Under the pieces are notes generated by a model. That model did no database searches, was not told where the DNA came from, and worked only from the letters and a program-made list of their open reading frames with translations. The translations under genes were made by a program, and so were the position numbers. Source: Bacillota bacterium (GTDB lineage: Bacteria > Bacillota > Limnochordia > DTU087). Taken from it: a stretch of DNA of 63,426 nt. The stretch is from positions 1-63,426 of the forward strand of contig JAAZLW010000235.1 of assembly GCA_012799135.1 (NCBI GenBank). Direction: 5' to 3'. Positions 4,320 through 60,248 of this stretch are shown one piece after another; the stretch's first letter is position 1, and each line of letters starts with the position of its first letter.

Positions 4320-4889
4320 ATGACCTGGATCGATATCTTAATCATATTGATCTTGATTGTGATGATGCTGAAAGGCTTTGTCAAGGGGCTTGTCCGGGAA
4401 GCCTGTGAGCTGGCCGGTATTATCTTTGCTATCTTCTATGCCTACAGAACTTACCATTATTGGGGCGATGAGCTAATCTACCGCTTCCGATGGCCGGATG
4501 TAGTGGCCTATCCCTTGGCTTTTGGCGGTATCGCTATTGTGATTAGCCTTCTAGCTGGCCTTTTGGGTTTGCTTATGGCCAAGGTCTTACGCTATACACC
4601 GATGAGGATGCTAGATCACTTGGCAGGTATCGGATTAGGCTTCGTTAAGGGGTTTATATGTGTCTGCCTACTCTTAGTGCTGTTTCGAGCTATGCCTTTT
4701 GAAGGAATCGGTATCATCATTAGCCAGTCTCCCTTGGCTCAGCAGTTCCTTAGCATAGTGCCCCGTCTTTATGATGGATTGGAGGCAGTCTTTCCCGAAG
4801 AGTTTCCGCGGTGGCCCCAAGAAGGCATACAGGATGAACCTGAGAAGCCTCGGCCGCTGCCAAGCAAGTCTCAGACTCCGGTAGTCTAG
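4320..4889 (+). CDS. CvpA family membrane protein
   Basis: 189 aa with four predicted TM segments and a typical CvpA N-terminus (WIDILIILILIVMMLKGFVKGLVRE). The zapA-cvpA-polX-mutS2 neighbourhood is conserved in Firmicutes. Confidence 0.75.
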   Translation: MTWIDILIILILIVMMLKGFVKGLVREACELAGIIFAIFYAYRTYHYWGDELIYRFRWPDVVAYPLAFGGIAIVISLLAGLLGLLMAKVLRYTPMRMLDHLAGIGLGFVKGFICVCLLLVLFRAMPFEGIGIIISQSPLAQQFLSIVPRLYDGLEAVFPEEFPRWPQEGIQDEPEKPRPLPSKSQTPVV

Positions 4890-4970
4890 TATGATGCACG
4901 TTTCGGACAAGCAGAGCCGGTTGTTGAGGATAGGTATTTGCCCGAAAATATAGGGAGGCAACAATTACAT

Positions 4971-6698
4971 ATGACCAACTTGGCCCTGGCAAGGGCTTTT
5001 TTTGAAATTGCTGACCTTATGGATCTGCGTGGTGATAACCCTTTTAAGGCGAATGCTTACCGAAAGGGGGCCCGGGCTATTGAATCTTTGCCGGAGGATA
5101 TCGGGGGAGTCTATCGGCAGGGCAAGGTGCGGGAGATTCCCGGGATTGGGGAGGTGTTGGCCGAAAAGATCGGGGAATGGCTGAACACGGGACGCATTCA
5201 GCACCTGGAGGATCTGCGGCAAGCAGTTCCGGCAGGACTGGTGGAGATGACGACAATTGCCGGAGTCGGTCCTAAGCTGGCCAGGAGATTCTATGCAGAG
5301 CTAGGTGTCTCTAACACCAAAGAGCTGGAGGTGGCCTGTCGCAATCGTAAAGTGCGGACCCTCAAGGGCCTAGGGGCAAGAACTGAATGGAATATATTGC
5401 GGGGGATCCAAACCTTGCGGGATAGAGGTGATCAGATTCCCTTGGGAGTTGCTCTACCGGTCGCTCGGGAGATACAAGGACATTTGGAGTTGCTCCCAGA
5501 GGTAGAGCGGGTTGAGTTGGCCGGTGATTTGCGACGTCGTCAGGAGTTGGTGGACAAGCTGGAATTGGTAGTCAGTAGCTTGGCTCCAGCTCGGACCTTG
5601 GAGTCTTTAGGTGGATTGCCAGAGGCAGCAGAGGTATTAAGTACCGAAGCAGCCGTCAAAGGAGTCACTCAGGGAAGCGTTAGATGGAAGAGCGGGCCCA
5701 TCATTGAAGTGTCGGCGGTGGCTCCAAAAGACTTTTGCTTGACCTTGTGGAAGGCCACTGGTTCACCGGAACATGTGGCTCGCTTACAGGCATTTGCCCG
5801 CAAGCAGGGGCTATTGCTAGACAATCACGGGATCTGGCCTGATCCCGGTGATATGCCGCCAGTCAGTGAAGCAGCCCTGTATGAGCTAGTGGGACTTCCC
5901 TTTATCCCCCCCGAGATCAGAGAAGGAAAAGGCGAGATTGAGGCGGCTGCCCAGGATGTACTTCCCCAGCTGGTAGAGCTCCCCGATATTCGGGGAGACC
6001 TTCACTGTCACTCAAGGTGGAGTGATGGGATCTTGACTTTGGAGGAGGTCGCACTAGCCGCAGAGGCCAAAGGCTATGAATATGTCGCCATCTGTGATCA
6101 CTCCCAATCCTTAAAGGTAGCCAATGGGCTCACAGCTGAGCGGCTACGGGCCCAAAGCGAGCAGATCCGGCTCATTGACCAAAAACTAGGGAAGCTGAGT
6201 CTTCTTTCCGGTATAGAAGTGGATATTCTAGGGGACGGCAGCCTGGATCTACCTGATTCTGTGCTAAAGGAAAGGGATGTGGTGGTTGCTTCTATCCATA
6301 GCGGTTTTCGCCAAGATAAGGAGCAACTGACGGCTAGGGTGGTGAGAGCCATGCAGAATCCCCATGTAGACATCATTGGTCACCCGACAGGGCGGCTTCT
6401 GGGGCGCCGGGAGCCGTATCCCATTGATATGGATAGAATTATCAAGATGGCGGCTAAGACCGGCACGGTTCTGGAGATTAACGCTTCTCCCGATCGGTTG
6501 GATGTTAATGATGTACATGCCTCTAAGGCCCGGGCTGCAGGTGTGAAGATTGTGATTAACACCGATGCCCACAGCCGAGCTGAACTAGACAATATGCATT
6601 TAGGACTTGGTGTGGCCCGCCGCGCCTGGTTGACTAAGGACCACGTGATTAATGCCTGGCCGTGGGCGGAGATCCAAGAGTATTTTTCCCATAGATAG
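4971..6698 (+). CDS. polX: DNA polymerase/3'-5' exonuclease PolX
   Basis: N-terminal Pol beta-like HhH region (MTNLALARAFFEIADLM...) and a C-terminal PHP domain (DLHCHSRWSDG, ICDHS, NTDAHS). The track ORF starts at 4938; ATG 4971 fits the family N-terminus. Confidence 0.9.
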   Translation: MTNLALARAFFEIADLMDLRGDNPFKANAYRKGARAIESLPEDIGGVYRQGKVREIPGIGEVLAEKIGEWLNTGRIQHLEDLRQAVPAGLVEMTTIAGVGPKLARRFYAELGVSNTKELEVACRNRKVRTLKGLGARTEWNILRGIQTLRDRGDQIPLGVALPVAREIQGHLELLPEVERVELAGDLRRRQELVDKLELVVSSLAPARTLESLGGLPEAAEVLSTEAAVKGVTQGSVRWKSGPIIEVSAVAPKDFCLTLWKATGSPEHVARLQAFARKQGLLLDNHGIWPDPGDMPPVSEAALYELVGLPFIPPEIREGKGEIEAAAQDVLPQLVELPDIRGDLHCHSRWSDGILTLEEVALAAEAKGYEYVAICDHSQSLKVANGLTAERLRAQSEQIRLIDQKLGKLSLLSGIEVDILGDGSLDLPDSVLKERDVVVASIHSGFRQDKEQLTARVVRAMQNPHVDIIGHPTGRLLGRREPYPIDMDRIIKMAAKTGTVLEINASPDRLDVNDVHASKARAAGVKIVINTDAHSRAELDNMHLGLGVARRAWLTKDHVINAWPWAEIQEYFSHR

Positions 6699-6774
6699 TA
6701 CCTACATCTCCTCAACTTACCTTGGGGGCTAGAAGCATCCAAGGACGGTGTCATTTGCCGGGAGGGTTTCCTGT

Positions 6775-6867
6775 CCTGTAGTCAAAGTGTTTAGAAGTAA
6801 GCTATGAAGTTACTATCCCCAGCTCCGGTAACGGTCGCAGCTTCTAAACACCAGCCATGACTACAGG
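6775..6867 (+). promoter_or_regulatory. long structured 5' leader (inverted repeat) overlapping the amidase RBS
   Basis: 6775-6784 pairs perfectly with 6858-6867 (10 bp) and 6787-6797 pairs perfectly with 6841-6851 (11 bp). The 3' arm ends 5 nt before ATG 6873 and runs into the purine-rich SD (ACAGGGGGAG). Confidence 0.45.
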
Positions 6868-6872
6868 GGGAG

Positions 6873-7637
6873 ATGTCTTTGGGAAAGTCGCGTCCGAGGG
6901 ACAAGATCATACTTCAGTCCAATGCCCTGGTGACGGTGCTATTGCTTTTGCTATCATTTATCTTTGGCATCAATTCTCCGGATAGCAGGGCACTACCGCC
7001 TGGGAATGGAGAATATAAGGCCTCTCCTGTCGATGGTGAGCTAGGTGGCGGGCTGCGTCGAGATCCTACTTCCTTGCGGGGTAAGGTCATTTTGGTAGAT
7101 CCCGGCCATGGGGGTGCTAATCCCGGTTCCCGGGGGGTGGGTCCCAGACCAGAAAAGGATAATGTCCTGGCTGTGGCTTGGGACCTAAAAGGTATGCTGG
7201 AATATGCGGGTGCGAAAGTGATTATGACAAGGGATGGCGATTATTCGCCTGGAGGGCCAAAAGCGGATCAGCTGGAAGCTCGGGTGCGGATTGCTAACCT
7301 CAGCCGTGGCGATGTCTTTGTTTCCATTCATAATGACTGGAACAAGAACAGCAGCCTGACCGGAACTACCACGTATTTTTACAGTCCTGATGGGTACCAC
7401 TTAGGGGAATCTTTACAGCGAGGTGTAAGCCAAGAACTGAGCTCCCGGAGCTTGGGGGTGAAGTGGGCGAGCTACTACGTATTGAGGAATACGGCTATGC
7501 CTGCAGCCCTGGTGGAACTGGGGTTTCTCAGCAACAAAAGGGAAGCCAATCTTCTGTCTACCCGCTCATATCAAACCAAGGCTGCCTTAGGTATCTATAA
7601 CGGGTTGGTTGAGTACTTTTCCAACAGATCACGATAG
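6873..7637 (+). CDS. N-acetylmuramoyl-L-alanine amidase (Amidase_3; CwlD-like)
   Basis: N-terminal signal/TM segment followed by KVILVDPGHGG...EKD...VIMTRDGD...SIHNDW...ALVELGFLSN, which is typical of Amidase_3. Confidence 0.85.
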   Translation: MSLGKSRPRDKIILQSNALVTVLLLLLSFIFGINSPDSRALPPGNGEYKASPVDGELGGGLRRDPTSLRGKVILVDPGHGGANPGSRGVGPRPEKDNVLAVAWDLKGMLEYAGAKVIMTRDGDYSPGGPKADQLEARVRIANLSRGDVFVSIHNDWNKNSSLTGTTTYFYSPDGYHLGESLQRGVSQELSSRSLGVKWASYYVLRNTAMPAALVELGFLSNKREANLLSTRSYQTKAALGIYNGLVEYFSNRSR

Positions 7638-14395: not shown

Positions 14396-15118
14396 GTGCA
14401 AAAACGGTGGCGGCCAAAAACCCGATCTTCTGGGCAAAGGGGATATTGGCATGAACTGCAAGTGATAATCAGTTTGCTTCTGTTCTTCCTTGTAGTATCA
14501 TCGGTGATTGCGTCCTGGTATGTGGATCTTCGAATCCGGCCGGTGGTGCGGCGTTGGGCAGAGCAGCGGGGAGTCAATATTGCCACCAGGGCCATTAATA
14601 ATGCTATCCAAACGATCATGGTGACGGGGATTGATTCCTCGGAATTAGTCCATTTCCAGAATGATCAAACAGGTCGTATTGTGGGCGTTAGTTTTGAGTG
14701 GGGTAGGATCAATGGCATCGTGTCGAATCTGACTAACCGCATCCAAAGTGCGATCAATACAACAGCTAATGAGGAAATTCCGGTACCCCTAGGTCAGCTT
14801 ACGGGGATTGAGGTGTTAGCCGGACTTGGACCGAGGATTCCTGTGAAGATTATTCCCGTGGGGGCCGTAGATACTATTCCCCGCATCGAGTTTTTGGAGA
14901 AGGGGATCAACCAGACTTTTTACCGCATCTATCTGGATGTGAGGACAACGGTACGTATTGTTGTGCCGTTGGTTGAAAAGGATATACAGATTAACAGTGC
15001 CGTGCCGATAGTAGAGCAATGGATAGTAGGTGATGTACCCCAGGTTTATCTAAACTGGAAGCCGGATCTACGGGAGCTGGAGAAAAGCCAGGAAACCCTA
15101 ACCAACGAGCCGCACTGA
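14396..15118 (+). CDS. yunB: sporulation protein YunB
   Basis: GTG start after GAGGTGGTGAG. One N-terminal TM segment, then the YunB-like region (IRPVVRRWAEQRGVNIATRAINNAI...IPVPLGQLTG...IPVKIIPVG). Confidence 0.8.
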   Translation: MQKRWRPKTRSSGQRGYWHELQVIISLLLFFLVVSSVIASWYVDLRIRPVVRRWAEQRGVNIATRAINNAIQTIMVTGIDSSELVHFQNDQTGRIVGVSFEWGRINGIVSNLTNRIQSAINTTANEEIPVPLGQLTGIEVLAGLGPRIPVKIIPVGAVDTIPRIEFLEKGINQTFYRIYLDVRTTVRIVVPLVEKDIQINSAVPIVEQWIVGDVPQVYLNWKPDLRELEKSQETLTNEPH

Positions 15119-15223: not shown

Positions 15224-15544
15224 CTATTTGTCGTGTACACTGAGCTGCTGTCTCACCAGTTCAATCAACTTGCGAGAAGTGTATCGGCCGGATAGAACCA
15301 CTTTGCCATCAAGACAGACAGCTGGGAGTTGATCAGGATGCTCCTTAGCCCAGCTGATGGCTTGTGCTGGACATTCCTGGTCGGCTTGATCGATATCAAC
15401 ATAGGTGAGGACAAGTTGATTCGGGAAGTGAAGGTTCAGCTGCCGCAGATAGAAAGCAGCGACCTCAGCCTGAGGCCGTATCCTACCTTTTCAACCATAG
15501 CATGTACTATGGGTCTTGGAACCGAGGATAATTACATGTAGCAT
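15224..15544 (-). CDS. thioredoxin/glutaredoxin-fold protein with in-frame UGA in a C-x-x-U motif (candidate selenoprotein; YuzD/DUF1462- or Grx-like)
   Basis: ATG at 15544-15542 is preceded by AAAGAGGA. The translation is MLHVIILGSKTHSTCYG-[TGA 15493-15491]-KGRIRPQAEVAAFYLRQLNLHFPNQLVLTYVDIDQ...QLPAVCLDGKVVLSGRYTSRKLIELVRQQLSVHDK, ending at TAG 15226-15224. 88 sense codons follow the TGA, and the first ATG/GTG/TTG among them is codon 64. A hairpin at 15460-15478 lies just 3' of the TGA. The ORF is absent from the track because it is split by the TGA. Confidence 0.55.
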
Positions 15545-16020
15545 GTTGGCGAGTCCTCTTTCTGGTCAGATACTGATAGATCCTCTTCGTGGTCACATAC
15601 TGACAAGTCCTCTTTCTGGTCAGCATCCTGTTTACAGCTCACATCAGCCAAGTGCGTGAAGGCCATCAGAGCACGCTGCTTAATCTCTTCAGGGTCTCGG
15701 ATCCAGTCCACCCATTGCCTGTCTGTAATCATTCTCTTCAGAAATCCAAGCCATGCATTTTTCTCATCGGAACCATCCAGGTTGGTGAGTTCCCATGGAG
15801 GTGGCTGATCTTTGGTAAGGCTACCTTGCTGACATGCCTGATAATGAGCCCAAAGTAAAGCTAGTGCAAAAGGATTAGGTTGATCGCTTTCACTCGCTGA
15901 CCCATGGCTTGTTTGGGCTATTTCAACTTGAATATCCTCCGGGCGCAGAGGTTCAGGAGATGTTTTCGTTACCTTGTAGTACCGCTGTAACCTAACAGTA
16001 GTTGATTTGCCGCCAGGCAT
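15532..16020 (-). CDS. hypothetical protein with acidic C-terminal tandem repeats
   Basis: 162-aa ORF. The ATG is preceded by AGGGGGG. No family recognised. The C-terminus contains EDLSVCDHE/EDLSVSDQK repeats. Its last 13 nt overlap the start of the downstream thioredoxin-fold ORF. Confidence 0.55.
   Translation of the reverse strand: MPGGKSTTVRLQRYYKVTKTSPEPLRPEDIQVEIAQTSHGSASESDQPNPFALALLWAHYQACQQGSLTKDQPPPWELTNLDGSDEKNAWLGFLKRMITDRQWVDWIRDPEEIKQRALMAFTHLADVSCKQDADQKEDLSVCDHEEDLSVSDQKEDSPTCYM
15552..15623. repeat. 27-bp tandem repeat, about 2.7 copies, inside the 162-aa ORF
   Basis: Units are 15552-15578, 15579-15605 (21/27 identical to unit 1) and 15606-15623 (18/18 identical to the start of unit 1). 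Confidence 0.85.
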
Positions 16021-16051
16021 AATCTACCCCCCTAGCATAGCATAGTATTGA

Positions 16052-16083
16052 GGGAGTGCACACTCCTTGTGCTTTGCACTCCC
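16052..16083. repeat. 9-bp perfect inverted repeat (intergenic hairpin) between the 49-aa and 162-aa genes
   Basis: GGGAGTGCA (16052-16060) pairs with TGCACTCCC (16075-16083) across a 14-nt loop. No U-tract on either strand. Confidence 0.5.
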
Positions 16084-16189
16084 CCAGAATCTGTGTTAGC
16101 AGCATCTGCAGGGGCGTTGGATGCAGCCCAACAGCCCCACAGCAAGGAGAGCTATACTAGCACAAGCCAGTAGATGTCGTTTGCAGCTC

Positions 16190-16339
16190 TTACCCTACTG
16201 GCGGACAGGGTCCGAGGCATTCTACTCCGGTCACATCGACACTCGCCGTCACGGTAAAGGTAACCTCGAAAGTAACACAGATGAGCTCATTGAACTCATC
16301 AATACACTGATTGACCTGCTGTTGCTGGAGCCTTGCCAT
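16190..16339 (-). CDS. 49-aa Cys-rich protein, paralogous to the N-terminal domain of the 187-aa neighbour
   Basis: ATG at 16339 lies 6 nt after GAGGAGGTG. The translation is MARLQQQQVNQCIDEFNELICVTFEVTFTVTASVDVTGVECLGPCPPVG, ending at TAA 16192-16190. It is about 50% identical over about 43 aa to residues 6-48 of the 16476-17039 product, with all four Cys aligned. It is below the track's length cut-off. Confidence 0.7.
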   Translation of the reverse strand: MARLQQQQVNQCIDEFNELICVTFEVTFTVTASVDVTGVECLGPCPPVG

Positions 16340-16475
16340 GCATTTCACCTCCTCTGATCCCCTTGGTATCTATCGAGTTGAGAGAACCGACTGCAGTCTA
16401 GAGTACGTTTGCTATTCATATCGCGTCATAAGAGGCAACTCCGATTATTGGCTAACCGGCCCTTGGGTGCAGGGA

Positions 16476-17039
16476 TTACGGACAGGGGCAAGCAGGTCCT
16501 AACTGACAATCGGGATTCACTGTAGCCGGTGCCGGACCACCCTTTGCGGCCACATCCCTGAGCACCTGATCAAACTGTCCCATCACGTCAAAGCAATACA
16601 AGACGACTCCATCGGCCTGGGTTGTGCCGGCATCGAATTTAAGGCCAGATTGTCCTCCCAGATCGGCTTGGGGACCAACGTTGAACGGGATAGGAATCCC
16701 ATTACGTGTAACTTGTGTGACCATAGGAGGGGGATTGCAGAGTTCAAGCACCCAATGGCTGAGTGCCGGATCACCCTGGACACTCACCCGATAGCACCAG
16801 CGCTGGATGGGCCCTAGCTGCTGCACACTCGCAAAGACAATGTGATAGATTGCCGTCTGTCCGGTCTGTGGGTTGGTTACCTCCAGAACGCAGAGCACTT
16901 CCGGGGCACAGGGGCCTAAGCAGTCTACATCAATAACTTCATCGGTGGCCTCGGCGGTGAAAGTAATGGTGAAGGTGGTACAGATCTGTTCATCGAACTC
17001 ATCGGTGCAGGCAGGGATTTGCTGCAGCTCTTGATTCAT
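16476..17039 (-). CDS. 187-aa Cys-rich protein of unknown function
   Basis: ATG is preceded by AAGGAGGTG. The N-terminal domain QQIPACTDEFDEQICTTFTITFTAEATDEVIDVDCLGPCAPEV is shared with the 49-aa ORF. The C-terminus is CQLGPACPCP. No family recognised. Confidence 0.75.
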   Translation of the reverse strand: MNQELQQIPACTDEFDEQICTTFTITFTAEATDEVIDVDCLGPCAPEVLCVLEVTNPQTGQTAIYHIVFASVQQLGPIQRWCYRVSVQGDPALSHWVLELCNPPPMVTQVTRNGIPIPFNVGPQADLGGQSGLKFDAGTTQADGVVLYCFDVMGQFDQVLRDVAAKGGPAPATVNPDCQLGPACPCP

Positions 17040-17072
17040 GGTCGAGTCACCTCCTTTCCATTTCCACTTCAG

Positions 17073-17087
17073 AGTACTCCGAGTACT
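17073..17087. promoter_or_regulatory. 15-bp perfect palindrome upstream of the 187-aa gene (possible operator)
   Basis: AGTACTC-C-GAGTACT at 17073-17087. It lies about 15 nt upstream of the SD of the 187-aa ORF (SD complement at 17049-17056), 34 nt from its ATG at 17039. Confidence 0.35.
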
Positions 17088-17173
17088 TAGTGACGGACAC
17101 GGGATTGTACTACTGATTCAGCTGACCATTGGTTGATGGGATTAGGGTCCGTGTAATCAATCTTCCGAAGTGG

Positions 17174-17202
17174 TTTCCAGGATAGGGGAAGTGGTGTATA
17201 AT
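17174..17202 (+). promoter_or_regulatory. putative sigma-A promoter for pgsA
   Basis: -35 TTTCCA (17174-17179), 17-nt spacer, -10 TATAAT (17197-17202). Confidence 0.4.
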
Positions 17203-17228
17203 GGCGGTAGTTGTTGGGAGGTGCGGAG

Positions 17229-17732
17229 TTGACTCTTGCTAATCTACTTACGATGCTGCGTCTGGCAGCCGTCCCGCTATTTCTCTACCTGTTTTCCTTA
17301 GAAGGAATGGATCCCCGCTGGATTGCCCTGGTATTTGTGCTTACCGGTATCACAGATATCCTTGATGGGCATTTGGCCCGGTCTCGCAACGAGGTAACTC
17401 GTTTCGGTACTCTAGCTGATCCGCTTGCGGATAAGCTCATCATGCTAGCAGCTGTAATCTCCTTAGCATCGCGGGGGAATGTGCCGGTATGGGTGGCAGT
17501 ATTGCTGGCAGCTAAAGAGATCGCCCTGATGGTCGGTGCCGGCGTATTCTTGATTTCGCGAAGCAAGGTTACGCCCGCCAGTAATCTCGGCAAATCCGCC
17601 ACTGCACTACTGTACATTGGGGTTACAGGGACTATTCTAGGCATTTCGGCTTCCATCTATTTGGTTATCTTGGGAGTGGGGGTGTCTCTCTTGGCCGGCC
17701 TGGATTACCTGCGACAGGCCTTGGGCAAATAG
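17229..17732 (+). CDS. pgsA: CDP-diacylglycerol--glycerol-3-phosphate 3-phosphatidyltransferase
   Basis: CDP-alcohol phosphatidyltransferase motif DILDGHLARSRNEVTRFGTLADPLADK. The TTG at 17229 lies 5 nt after GGGAGGTG and gives the family-like N-terminus MTLANLLTMLRL. The track ORF starts at 17211. Confidence 0.9.
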   Translation: MTLANLLTMLRLAAVPLFLYLFSLEGMDPRWIALVFVLTGITDILDGHLARSRNEVTRFGTLADPLADKLIMLAAVISLASRGNVPVWVAVLLAAKEIALMVGAGVFLISRSKVTPASNLGKSATALLYIGVTGTILGISASIYLVILGVGVSLLAGLDYLRQALGK

Positions 17733-59127: not shown

Positions 59128-59853
59128 ATGATAACAAGAACACTGCATGGTCGTTTACTTGTTTCTGGTATCATACTGGCGGTAGTAATGCTCTTTGGTT
59201 TGGGTGCACAAATGGCCGGTAATGTACTGCCAGTGGAAGAAGCGTATAACACCGAGAGTCTCATACGGTTACATATTCTGGCCAATAGTGACTTGCCTGA
59301 CGATCAGGACCTGAAGCTGCAGGTGCGGGATGCTGTCATTGCGGAAACGAACGCGCTCTTTGCTGGGATTACCACCAGAGCTCAGGCCTGGCAGCAACTC
59401 AGCATCCATAAAGATGCGGTACGCATAGTTGCGCAGGATGTTGTTGATCGATCGGGGAAAGGGTATCCGGTAGAAGTCAAGTTGGGTAACTATGATTTCC
59501 CTGAGAAAACCTATGGATCTCTCACCGTACCGGCTGGAGAATACCAGGCTATGCAAGTCATCATCGGGCAGGGCAAAGGCAAGAATTGGTGGTGTGTGCT
59601 CTTCCCTCCTCTTTGCTTCATGGAAGGATTAGGGACAGACTCAGCCATCGTCAGGCGAGATTCAATTGAGCAAAATGACAGCGGTGATCAGGACCAGACA
59701 CAGCAGCAGGTCGTGGTAGAGTGGCGCTTCAAATACCTGGATAGCCTGTACCGGGAGTATAGTCAGAAACTAGCAGTTCTAGTCAGCTCTCCTTGGGGAA
59801 GGCGTCTGCTTTCTACTGCACAACTACCATCCCAGGTGTTGTTGCGGCATTGA
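59128..59853 (+). CDS. spoIIR: stage II sporulation protein R
   Basis: Signal/TM segment, LIRLHILANSD...DQDLKLQVRDAV, NWWCVLFPPLCF. Confidence 0.9.
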   Translation: MITRTLHGRLLVSGIILAVVMLFGLGAQMAGNVLPVEEAYNTESLIRLHILANSDLPDDQDLKLQVRDAVIAETNALFAGITTRAQAWQQLSIHKDAVRIVAQDVVDRSGKGYPVEVKLGNYDFPEKTYGSLTVPAGEYQAMQVIIGQGKGKNWWCVLFPPLCFMEGLGTDSAIVRRDSIEQNDSGDQDQTQQQVVVEWRFKYLDSLYREYSQKLAVLVSSPWGRRLLSTAQLPSQVLLRH

Positions 59854-59984
59854 CAATTATTCCCTGGATTTCGGGCCAAACCTAAGGTGAGCAAACCCTT
59901 GGGGTTGGCACAGTGACGGGTGAACAGTACATTTGCCCCTACCGGCACATATAATAGTGGTAGGTTACGCCGGGGGGTGAGGGT

Positions 59985-60248
59985 ATGCTGGTCAAGACAT
60001 CGGAGCTTTGGATCCTCGATGTAGTCAACACTGTAGATGGTCAAAGACTGGGGAACATTACCGATCTTGATATTGACCTGACTACCGGCAGAATCAATGC
60101 ACTTATTCTTACTGAGTCCAGTGGTTTGTTGGGTCTGTTTAGGCGAGGTCATGATATAGTCATTCCCTGGGAAAAGGTAGTTCTTATTGGTATCGATGTA
60201 ATACTGGTAGAGATGGTTTCCTTGCGGGAGCCCAAGCGAGGGCGTTGA
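59985..60248 (+). CDS. YlmC/YmxH family sporulation protein (PRC barrel)
   Basis: 87 aa: SELWILDVVNTVDGQRLGNITDLDIDLTTGRINALIL...HDIVIPWEKVVLIGIDVILV. Confidence 0.85.
   Translation: MLVKTSELWILDVVNTVDGQRLGNITDLDIDLTTGRINALILTESSGLLGLFRRGHDIVIPWEKVVLIGIDVILVEMVSLREPKRGR

Follow-up and report, generated by a model that had tools for sequence, protein, structure and literature searches.

A three-gene cassette of Bacillota encoding a portable four-cysteine hairpin module and a helical partner: a candidate spore-envelope assembly

In the Bacillus cereus group, the subunits Ena1A/B, Ena2A, and Ena3A of the endospore appendages (ENA) of the S-/L-ENA kind are cross-linked by disulfides through an N-terminal Cys connector (bioRxiv 10.1101/2020.08.21.260141; PMC11362473). 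In F-ENA (DUF4183), a spore-surface system found from Bacillota including Clostridia, the short N-terminal peptide of F-Anchor binds ExsF (bioRxiv 10.1101/2025.02.11.637640). The locus described here is located on a stretch of 63,426 nucleotides from a Bacillota bacterium (assembly GCA_012799135.1, contig JAAZLW010000235.1), and this whole stretch is called the window. Three genes on its minus strand are designated as A, B, and C (Table 1). The products of A and B share an N-terminal module with four Cys residues, while C encodes a protein with a helical core. It is tentatively predicted, at slightly less than an even chance, that A-B-C encodes a mother-cell-made, leaderless, Cys-crosslinked assembly of the spore envelope in which the module serves as a docking tag.

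The closest known systems are analogies to this cassette, not relatives. The likeness to S-/L-ENA lies in small, leaderless, beta-rich spore proteins encoded in small paralogue clusters and made, as is predicted here, by the mother cell. However, the connector of S-/L-ENA is a CC/C peptide, whereas the Cys residues of A and B follow the spacing C-x8-C-x19-C-x3-C around a hairpin, and S-/L-ENA have no counterpart to B, a paralogue consisting of the tag alone, or to C, an obligate helical partner. F-ENA offers a functional analogy for a module that would dock on C, in that a short N-terminal peptide docks one protein on another. Unlike F-ENA, the cassette includes no collagen-like repeats, and C is helical whereas ExsF is a beta-protein. 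The N-terminal domain of the BclA type is common to several differing proteins and targets them to the anchor ExsFA/BxpB on the spore surface (see also PMC4750369). The LIGPTLPPIPP-type motif of this domain is absent from A, B, and C, which are unrelated to these proteins in sequence, and BclA is likewise an analogy only.

The searches agree with this comparison. A, B, and C showed no matches in Pfam, NCBIfam, PHROGs, and PADLOC (E<=1 for PADLOC and PHROGs), and the profiles of A, its beta-domain, and C showed no significant match to the sequences of the Protein Data Bank (PDB), with the best E=0.11. The family had not been recognised in the original prediction either, and none of the searches placed A or B in a well-characterised one. 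There was no Pfam hit at E<=1 to DUF3992, the jellyroll domain of S-/L-ENA, or to DUF4183, the head domain of F-ENA with its N-terminal hook, and CryBP1 (PF07029) was absent from A, B, and C in Pfam. Homology to the known systems was tried with hhalign and rejected: the profiles of A, the module, and C gave a probability of <=0.4% against Ena2A and <=0.3% against F-ENA and F-ENA-3, and an anchor of the ExsFA/BxpB type was rejected for C and A with <=0.1% against ExsF. The original idea of an appendage-like subunit is not upheld, given no similarity to DUF3992, DUF4183, or ExsF. An Rfam scan of 15300-17300 returned nothing, and the literature on CryBP1 and on the peptide string NAEGEK gave nothing of use. 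The cassette is unrelated to any characterised family, while the kind of system that we infer, Cys-rich spore-surface proteins with docking tags, is already known.

Table 1. Positions of the A-B-C cassette and associated sequence features in the window.
Feature	Position	Strand	Description
Gene A	16476-17039	minus	Open reading frame (ORF), 187 aa, ATG start
N-terminal 4-Cys module of A	16899-17039	minus	Residues 1-47
Remaining parts of A			Beta-rich domain, residues 48 to about 175, then Cys-rich tail CQLGPACPCP
Shine-Dalgarno (SD) sequence of A	17048-17056	minus	AAGGAGGTG; 8 nt before ATG; read from the sequence; conserved in L001 and L005
Motif upstream of A	17070-17079	minus	GAGTACTCTG (consensus GAGTAYNCTG); about 25-30 nt upstream of A
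Gene B	16190-16339	minus	49 aa, MARLQQ..., module alone (MARLQQQQVNQCIDEFNELICVTFEVTFTVTASVDVTGVECLGPCPPVG)
SD sequence of B	16346-16354	minus	GAGGAGGTG; ATG 6 nt on; equivalent strong SD sequences in homologous loci
Promoter-like element upstream of B	16399-16426	minus	ACGCGATATGAATAGCAAACGTACTCTA (AC-N17-CGTAnnnTA); ends 59 nt upstream of B start; one base off the sigma-K-type consensus
Gene C	15532-16020	minus	ORF, 162 aa, between B and yunB
Tandem repeat in C	15554-15623	minus	27-nt unit, 2.6 copies; 3' end of C; encodes acidic ...DQKEDLSV... units
Terminator-like hairpin	15460-15478	minus	GC-rich hairpin, then T-rich tract; 3' of gene C

Two minus-strand ORFs with strong SD sequences had been predicted at this locus, and both were confirmed at their coordinates. 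The mechanical ORF of B extends over 16190-16348, and its GTG start falls within the SD sequence GAGGAGGTG; the ATG at 16339 is the start conserved in homologues (MARLQQ / MARIQP). BLASTP aligned A and B without gaps at 23/41 identities (56%, E=8e-15), far above chance, and C11, C20, C40, and C44 of A were aligned with the four Cys residues of B. The common module seen originally, with ~50% identity over ~43 aa and four aligned Cys residues, was thus reproduced, and A and B are true paralogues via this N-terminal module. A second Cys cluster had been reported at the C-terminus of A, which indeed ends with ...NPDCQLGPACPCP. All the details of the original description that lent themselves to checking were correct. 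The 49-aa product of B was found in the protein collection as P0076 (P and L numbers refer to the proteins and loci of this survey).

A contains 11 Cys residues (5.9%) and B contains 4 (8.2%), which is 6-9x the background of the long ORFs in the window (0.88%). Both proteins are strongly acidic, with a net charge of -11.5 for the module of A and -5.5 for B. No signal peptide, hydrophobic segment, or membrane segment was found in A, B, or C of the window. The four Cys residues are invariant in 12/12 aligned module sequences. An extra Cys is present in the hairpin loop in some lineages, and within any lineage either both A (or A', the variant described below) and B have one, or neither has. This matching suggests, from the sequence pattern, that the hairpin loops of A and B may be adjacent in a complex. 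A separate idea started from the C.GP.C with which both the module and the last hairpin of the beta-domain end: the one could have been copied from the other, which would hint at strand exchange. It was rejected with an hhalign probability of 0.5%.

B is a genuine gene. Close homologues of A are only a handful (49-81% identity), and all are from metagenomes or metagenome-assembled genomes (MAGs), mostly of anaerobic digesters. A hidden Markov model of the module was run against the six-frame translations of their contigs, and a module-only ORF with a strong SD sequence was found just downstream of A wherever the contig continues (L003-8, L009/10, L024, L032/33, and L045/46). B is present in every lineage examined whose contig reaches that far. 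The homologues of B are 71-80% identical to B of the window where A is 69-74% identical. In pairwise codon comparison of B, the proportion of synonymous differences (pS) was about 0.75, which is saturated, and that of nonsynonymous differences (pN) was 0.08-0.13; the ratio of the substitution rates (dN/dS) in more distant pairs was 0.15-0.24. The codon comparison indicates that B is conserved under purifying selection, and low pN with saturated synonymous sites rules out a decaying duplicate.

It is hardly credible that B arose by chance or is what remains, without function, of a partly duplicated A. In favor of this reading, B is small, and the gene callers passed over it in L005-L008; but it is refuted by the conservation of B with its strong SD sequence and by the codon comparison, and stand-alone module genes occur even in lineages without A (L011 and L022). 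In the public gene calls of L005-L008, an antisense 159-aa ORF (6401-6880, minus strand) spans the A/B intergenic region and B, and B is uncalled; this ORF is probably a mis-annotation. Among the relatives of A, P0007 joins parts of A to an N-terminal RuvB fragment, P0010 joins them to a polysaccharide deacetylase, and P0009 is frameshifted. On such short contigs, errors of assembly or gene calling are the most likely origin of these three proteins, and they were excluded from the profiles because they look chimeric or frameshifted.

The unit is not a pair. Originally, two proteins were described with yunB next door; yunB is nearby (14396-15118; PF09560, E=2.7e-30), but gene C intervenes, and A-B-C is one cassette whose constant core is a module protein and the helical C. 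C consists of a basic extended N-terminal arm (isoelectric point 9.4), a Trp-rich helical core (LLWAHYQAC...PWE...W..FL..ITD..W..WI), and an acidic repetitive tail. In other loci, the gene at this position encodes a homologue of C with 42-62% identity, and the family comprises 26 protein clusters, nameless and with no Pfam domain. The AlphaFold2 (AF2) model of C, built from 27 sequences, has a predicted local distance difference test (pLDDT) score of 63.6, with helices at residues 50-64, 84-97, and 110-131 and an unstructured N-terminal arm. Foldseek with this model returned nothing below E=2. The hairpin 3' of C is the probable operon end; of the two terminator calls, one falls inside gene B and is probably spurious.

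About ten lineages were gathered by look-ups from the module-only and C-family proteins and by scanning metagenomes and the genomes of GTDB. Six of them have an A that is 49-74% identical to that of the window, and here B and then C follow A where the contig continues. The cassette is present at the same chromosomal site, beside pgsA-prsW-yebC-bofC-ruvCAB, in 5 of these 6 lineages, and in a different context in the sixth (L009/L010, A 52% identical). A site that stays fixed in the clade of the window while A diverges to 49% identity points to vertical inheritance. Outside this clade, a module ORF is found directly upstream of C in loci whose surroundings are otherwise unrelated (L009, L011, L014/18, L017/25, L022, and L043), and was seen by eye upstream of C in Frackibacter L020. 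C without a recognisable intact upstream module was found only from a GC-rich lineage (L027 and L034), whose copies look frameshifted. Across the lineages gathered, module protein and C are obligate neighbours by gene order. All the nameable carriers are Bacillota MAGs or Halanaerobiales.

This distribution bears on the possibility of a small mobile toxin-antitoxin or defence unit, in which the Cys-rich proteins would be effectors and C would neutralise them. In favor of this, the cassette is a self-contained unit of 2-4 genes whose neighbours are not conserved across distant lineages, and the L009 copy is beside a transposase and partly duplicated. HEPN/nucleotidyltransferase pairs are near the cassette in L020/L021, and HEPN-like and nucleotidyltransferase-like ORFs, recognised by eye, adjoin the degraded copy of L027. 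Nevertheless, the reading is improbable: vertical inheritance at one chromosomal site is indicated for the clade of the window, A, B, and C have no PADLOC or PHROGs match, and small proteins that are strongly acidic and fused to adhesin-type or PKD domains are not toxin-like. At the L009 locus itself (4477-7482), the neighbour is a DDE transposase; after a complete A-B-C come a truncated A (84 aa, the C-terminal part only) and then identical copies of B and C.

The architectures vary around the constant core. A-B-C is found from the clade of the window and L009. A'-B-C, in which A' is a module with a C-terminal membrane helix, is found from L014-19, L017, L025/26, and L035-38, and A' of L014/L025 is 85 aa long. 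B-C is found from L011-13, and L022/23 encode a divergent B and a C bearing an N-terminal membrane helix; such a helix is also present in C of P0104-P0110. In L043, the beta-domain comes first and the module is C-terminal (1890-2435), followed by B and then C, and a divergently transcribed gene in the 1200-2435 region combines the module with a K319L-like PKD domain and a membrane helix. This combination of module, PKD domain, and membrane helix is that of P0058. The gyrB-gyrA interval of Candidatus Frackibacter sp. WG13 (L020/L021/L028, 5859-6971) holds a divergent version of the cassette, in which a 50-aa module-like ORF, ...CPVKQDLCVEFDLVVTAKCDNIKIKCKPC, is followed by two C paralogues. The first of them has a C-terminal hairpin-like extension, SIELELNIQAETENLSVTC, which resembles a Cys-poor module, and may be a natural fusion of C and module. 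Judged by these gene structures, the module is portable: it can stand by itself, lie on either side of a beta-domain, or be joined to a membrane helix or PKD domain.

The same survey makes it very improbable that B, like the module of A, is the precursor of a Cys-modified ribosomally synthesized and post-translationally modified peptide (RiPP) or a leaderless bacteriocin, with C for recognition or immunity. B is a short Cys-rich peptide encoded beside a small unknown protein, and the N-terminal extensions of the module proteins vary like leader peptides. However, no modifying enzyme, protease, or exporter is conserved beside the cassette in about ten contexts, and the net charge of B is negative while bacteriocins are usually cationic. 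The whole hairpin is conserved, and its fusions to large folded domains and to membrane anchors are stable.

The genomic context points to sporulation. The window also encodes BofC, SpoIIR (59128-59853), and a YlmC/YmxH-family protein, and these genes together with that for YunB indicate that the organism is an endospore former. The sigma-K-type promoter, established for Bacillus and Clostridioides and active late in the mother cell, consists of AC, a spacer of 16-17 nt, and CATAnnnTA. A relaxed pattern, AC-N16-17-C[AG]TAnnnTA, preceded the first cassette gene by no more than 120 nt in 4/6 independent clades, and the strict CATA form did so in 3/6. The chance of the relaxed pattern was 0.0015-0.016 per region in dinucleotide shuffles, and the combined P was about 8e-8. 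The strict matches are upstream of the cassette in L009, L022, and L020, and a one-base variant precedes the cassette in L014/L025 and gene B in the window. By this pattern count, sigma-K-type elements are enriched upstream of the cassette. The -10 part of the element of B, CGTAATCTA, is also conserved ahead of the B genes of L003 and L005, and L043 has CATACCATA there.

The sole strict match in the 63-kb window, ACATTTGCCCCTACCGGCACATATAATA (59929-59956, plus strand), ends 28 nt before the YlmC/YmxH-family gene (59985-60248), with spoIIR right upstream, and is a useful positive control. No sigma-70-type promoter was found in the scan of the cassette strand. The GAGTAYNCTG motif upstream of A is conserved in four lineages (the window, L001, L005, and L045), though the upstream regions have otherwise diverged in the alignment. 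The short motif SGTAHTCTR was rejected as a stand-alone promoter signal, as its count in the window (4 vs 4.1 expected) shows no enrichment. The link to sporulation, first drawn from yunB, has gained from SpoIIR, BofC, the YlmC/YmxH-family protein, the restriction of the named carriers to Bacillota, and the sigma-K-type elements. Taken together, the original guess is partly supported.

The beta-domain of A has relatives of a different kind. A profile from the full-length alignment of A (A2) matched 68 representatives at E<=1e-3; apart from the close family and the module-only proteins, most of them cover only residues about 50-186 of A. Residues 48-187 of A (16479-16898 in the window) are a member of an uncurated family of beta-domains (P0012-P0074), designated as 'ALSHW'. 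Its motifs in the alignment of 48 domains are W.Y.V, PALSHWVL.LC, TG..GIKFD.G, V.VKAG, and GP.C, and Y36, V38, G85, and P135 are invariant in the beta-domain alignment A8. The domain is without a model in Pfam and NCBIfam, and its sequence does not match any solved structure. It lies at the N-terminus of large surface proteins of bacteria and archaea, usually directly behind the signal peptide, accompanied by SdrD_B, SpaA, DUF11, or CarboxypepD_reg repeats and by LPXTG, PEP-CTERM, PEF-CTERM, or type IX secretion system (T9SS) sorting signals.

Signal peptides and sorting signals are present in most of these relatives, whereas A and a subgroup of the family are leaderless and have extra Cys residues. 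On these features A belongs with the leaderless, Cys-rich subgroup, whose named members are all Bacillota, such as Clostridium tunisiense WP_017414825.1. In two distant relatives, P0019 and P0020 (Halanaerobiales and a Bacillota MAG), a CryBP1 domain, which is associated with parasporal crystals, precedes the beta-domain. Both the Bacillota origin of the named leaderless relatives and these two fusions are counted for the link to sporulation. The AF2 model of A, built from 7 sequences, has a pLDDT of 54.6 with the module unmodelled, and its core (residues 49-153) is all-beta with pLDDT 60-86. Foldseek of this model against the PDB returned only weak beta-sandwich matches, with the best E=0.012.

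Taken as a spore-envelope assembly, A-B-C would be a single self-contained operon for an acidic, Cys-rich structure that the mother cell would produce late in sporulation and add to the developing spore at the level of the coat, crust, or exosporium. The module of about 40 residues, a short acidic helix followed by the beta-hairpin TF.VTFTV...V.DV with the four Cys residues framing it, would be a portable tag for docking and cross-linking. B would be the tag alone, and A the tag with an adhesin-type beta-domain as an exposed 'head'. C would act as the adaptor, with its Trp-rich helical core as a scaffold and its basic unstructured N-terminal arm paired with the acidic hairpins. The charges of the modules and of this arm are complementary, which can be counted for a pairing of module and C. 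The Cys residues would then lock the assembly by disulfides after lysis of the mother cell, or through a shared metal site. The contact between module and C, the Cys cross-linking, the location on the spore, and the surface-exposed role of the beta-domain are all put forward on the strength of sequence features and neighbourhood.

Several observations weigh against a spore-envelope role. No similarity to a known coat, exosporium, or appendage protein was detectable with Pfam or with hhalign against Ena2A, F-ENA, F-ENA-3, and ExsF. The sigma-K-type consensus was taken from Bacillus and Clostridioides, not from the lineages in question, and A or G at the second position of the -10 element was allowed after seeing the data. 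Gene A in the clade of the window is without the sigma-K-type pattern and has the GAGTAYNCTG motif instead. The third Cys of the module is replaced in the A' subfamily, which means that the Cys framework is not absolutely fixed. The structure models of A and C are poor, as their pLDDT scores indicate. Lastly, a membrane complex with no relation to spores would account just as well for those variants of the module and of C that carry a membrane helix, which had not been foreseen in the original prediction.

Such a complex is the main rival, and is considered unlikely. It would be a cytoplasmic or membrane complex in which the module Cys residues bind Zn or an Fe-S cluster, or act as a redox switch, with C as partner or regulator and the fused domains setting location or output. 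Besides the anchored variants (A' of L014/L025, C of P0104-P0110, and P0058), the invariance of the four Cys residues in the 12 aligned module sequences fits this reading, and C-x3-C-P, with which the module ends, looks like the last part of ferredoxin-type motifs. The carriers are obligate anaerobes, which makes cytoplasmic disulfides unlikely. On the other hand, a third Cys that is replaced in A' and extra Cys residues that come and go would be unusual for a fixed metal site. By inspection, the module contains neither the CxxC knuckle pairs nor the CxxCxxCxxxCP motif of zinc-ribbon, rubredoxin-type, and ferredoxin-type Cys proteins, only C-x8-C ... C-x3-C-P, and A and B match no metal-binding family in Pfam or NCBIfam. 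The enrichment of sigma-K-type elements, the named carriers being all Bacillota, and the occurrence of the beta-domain of A otherwise on extracellular surface proteins also favor the spore-envelope assembly over this complex.

A broader prediction, which must be regarded as rather doubtful, is that A-B-C represents a Bacillota-specific spore-surface system in which the Cys-framed hairpin tag plugs varied cargo into the adaptor C. The tag would be fused at either end of adhesin-type heads, PKD domains, or membrane anchors. Such a system would be a new building principle for the spore envelopes of uncultured anaerobes, founded on three new protein families.

To our knowledge, the outer layers of spores are almost unknown outside Bacillus and Clostridioides, and we know of no model coat, exosporium, or appendage proteins annotated in the uncultured Bacillota that dominate digesters. 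If the spore-envelope assembly is real, it would be a first candidate spore-surface module for these digester Bacillota. It would also add three new protein families and a widespread beta-domain of surface proteins that no database covers, and display on the spore surface could be a use for a self-docking tag of 40 residues whose partner is defined. Should the metal or redox complex be correct instead, A-B-C would still represent a new family of small Cys proteins with an obligate partner. Either way, the short gene belongs in annotations, which often miss it or have an antisense ORF in its place.

A minor variation was observed in the tail of C. The near-identical allele P0085 (144 aa) is shorter in the repeat part, and the length of the tail thus varies between close strains.

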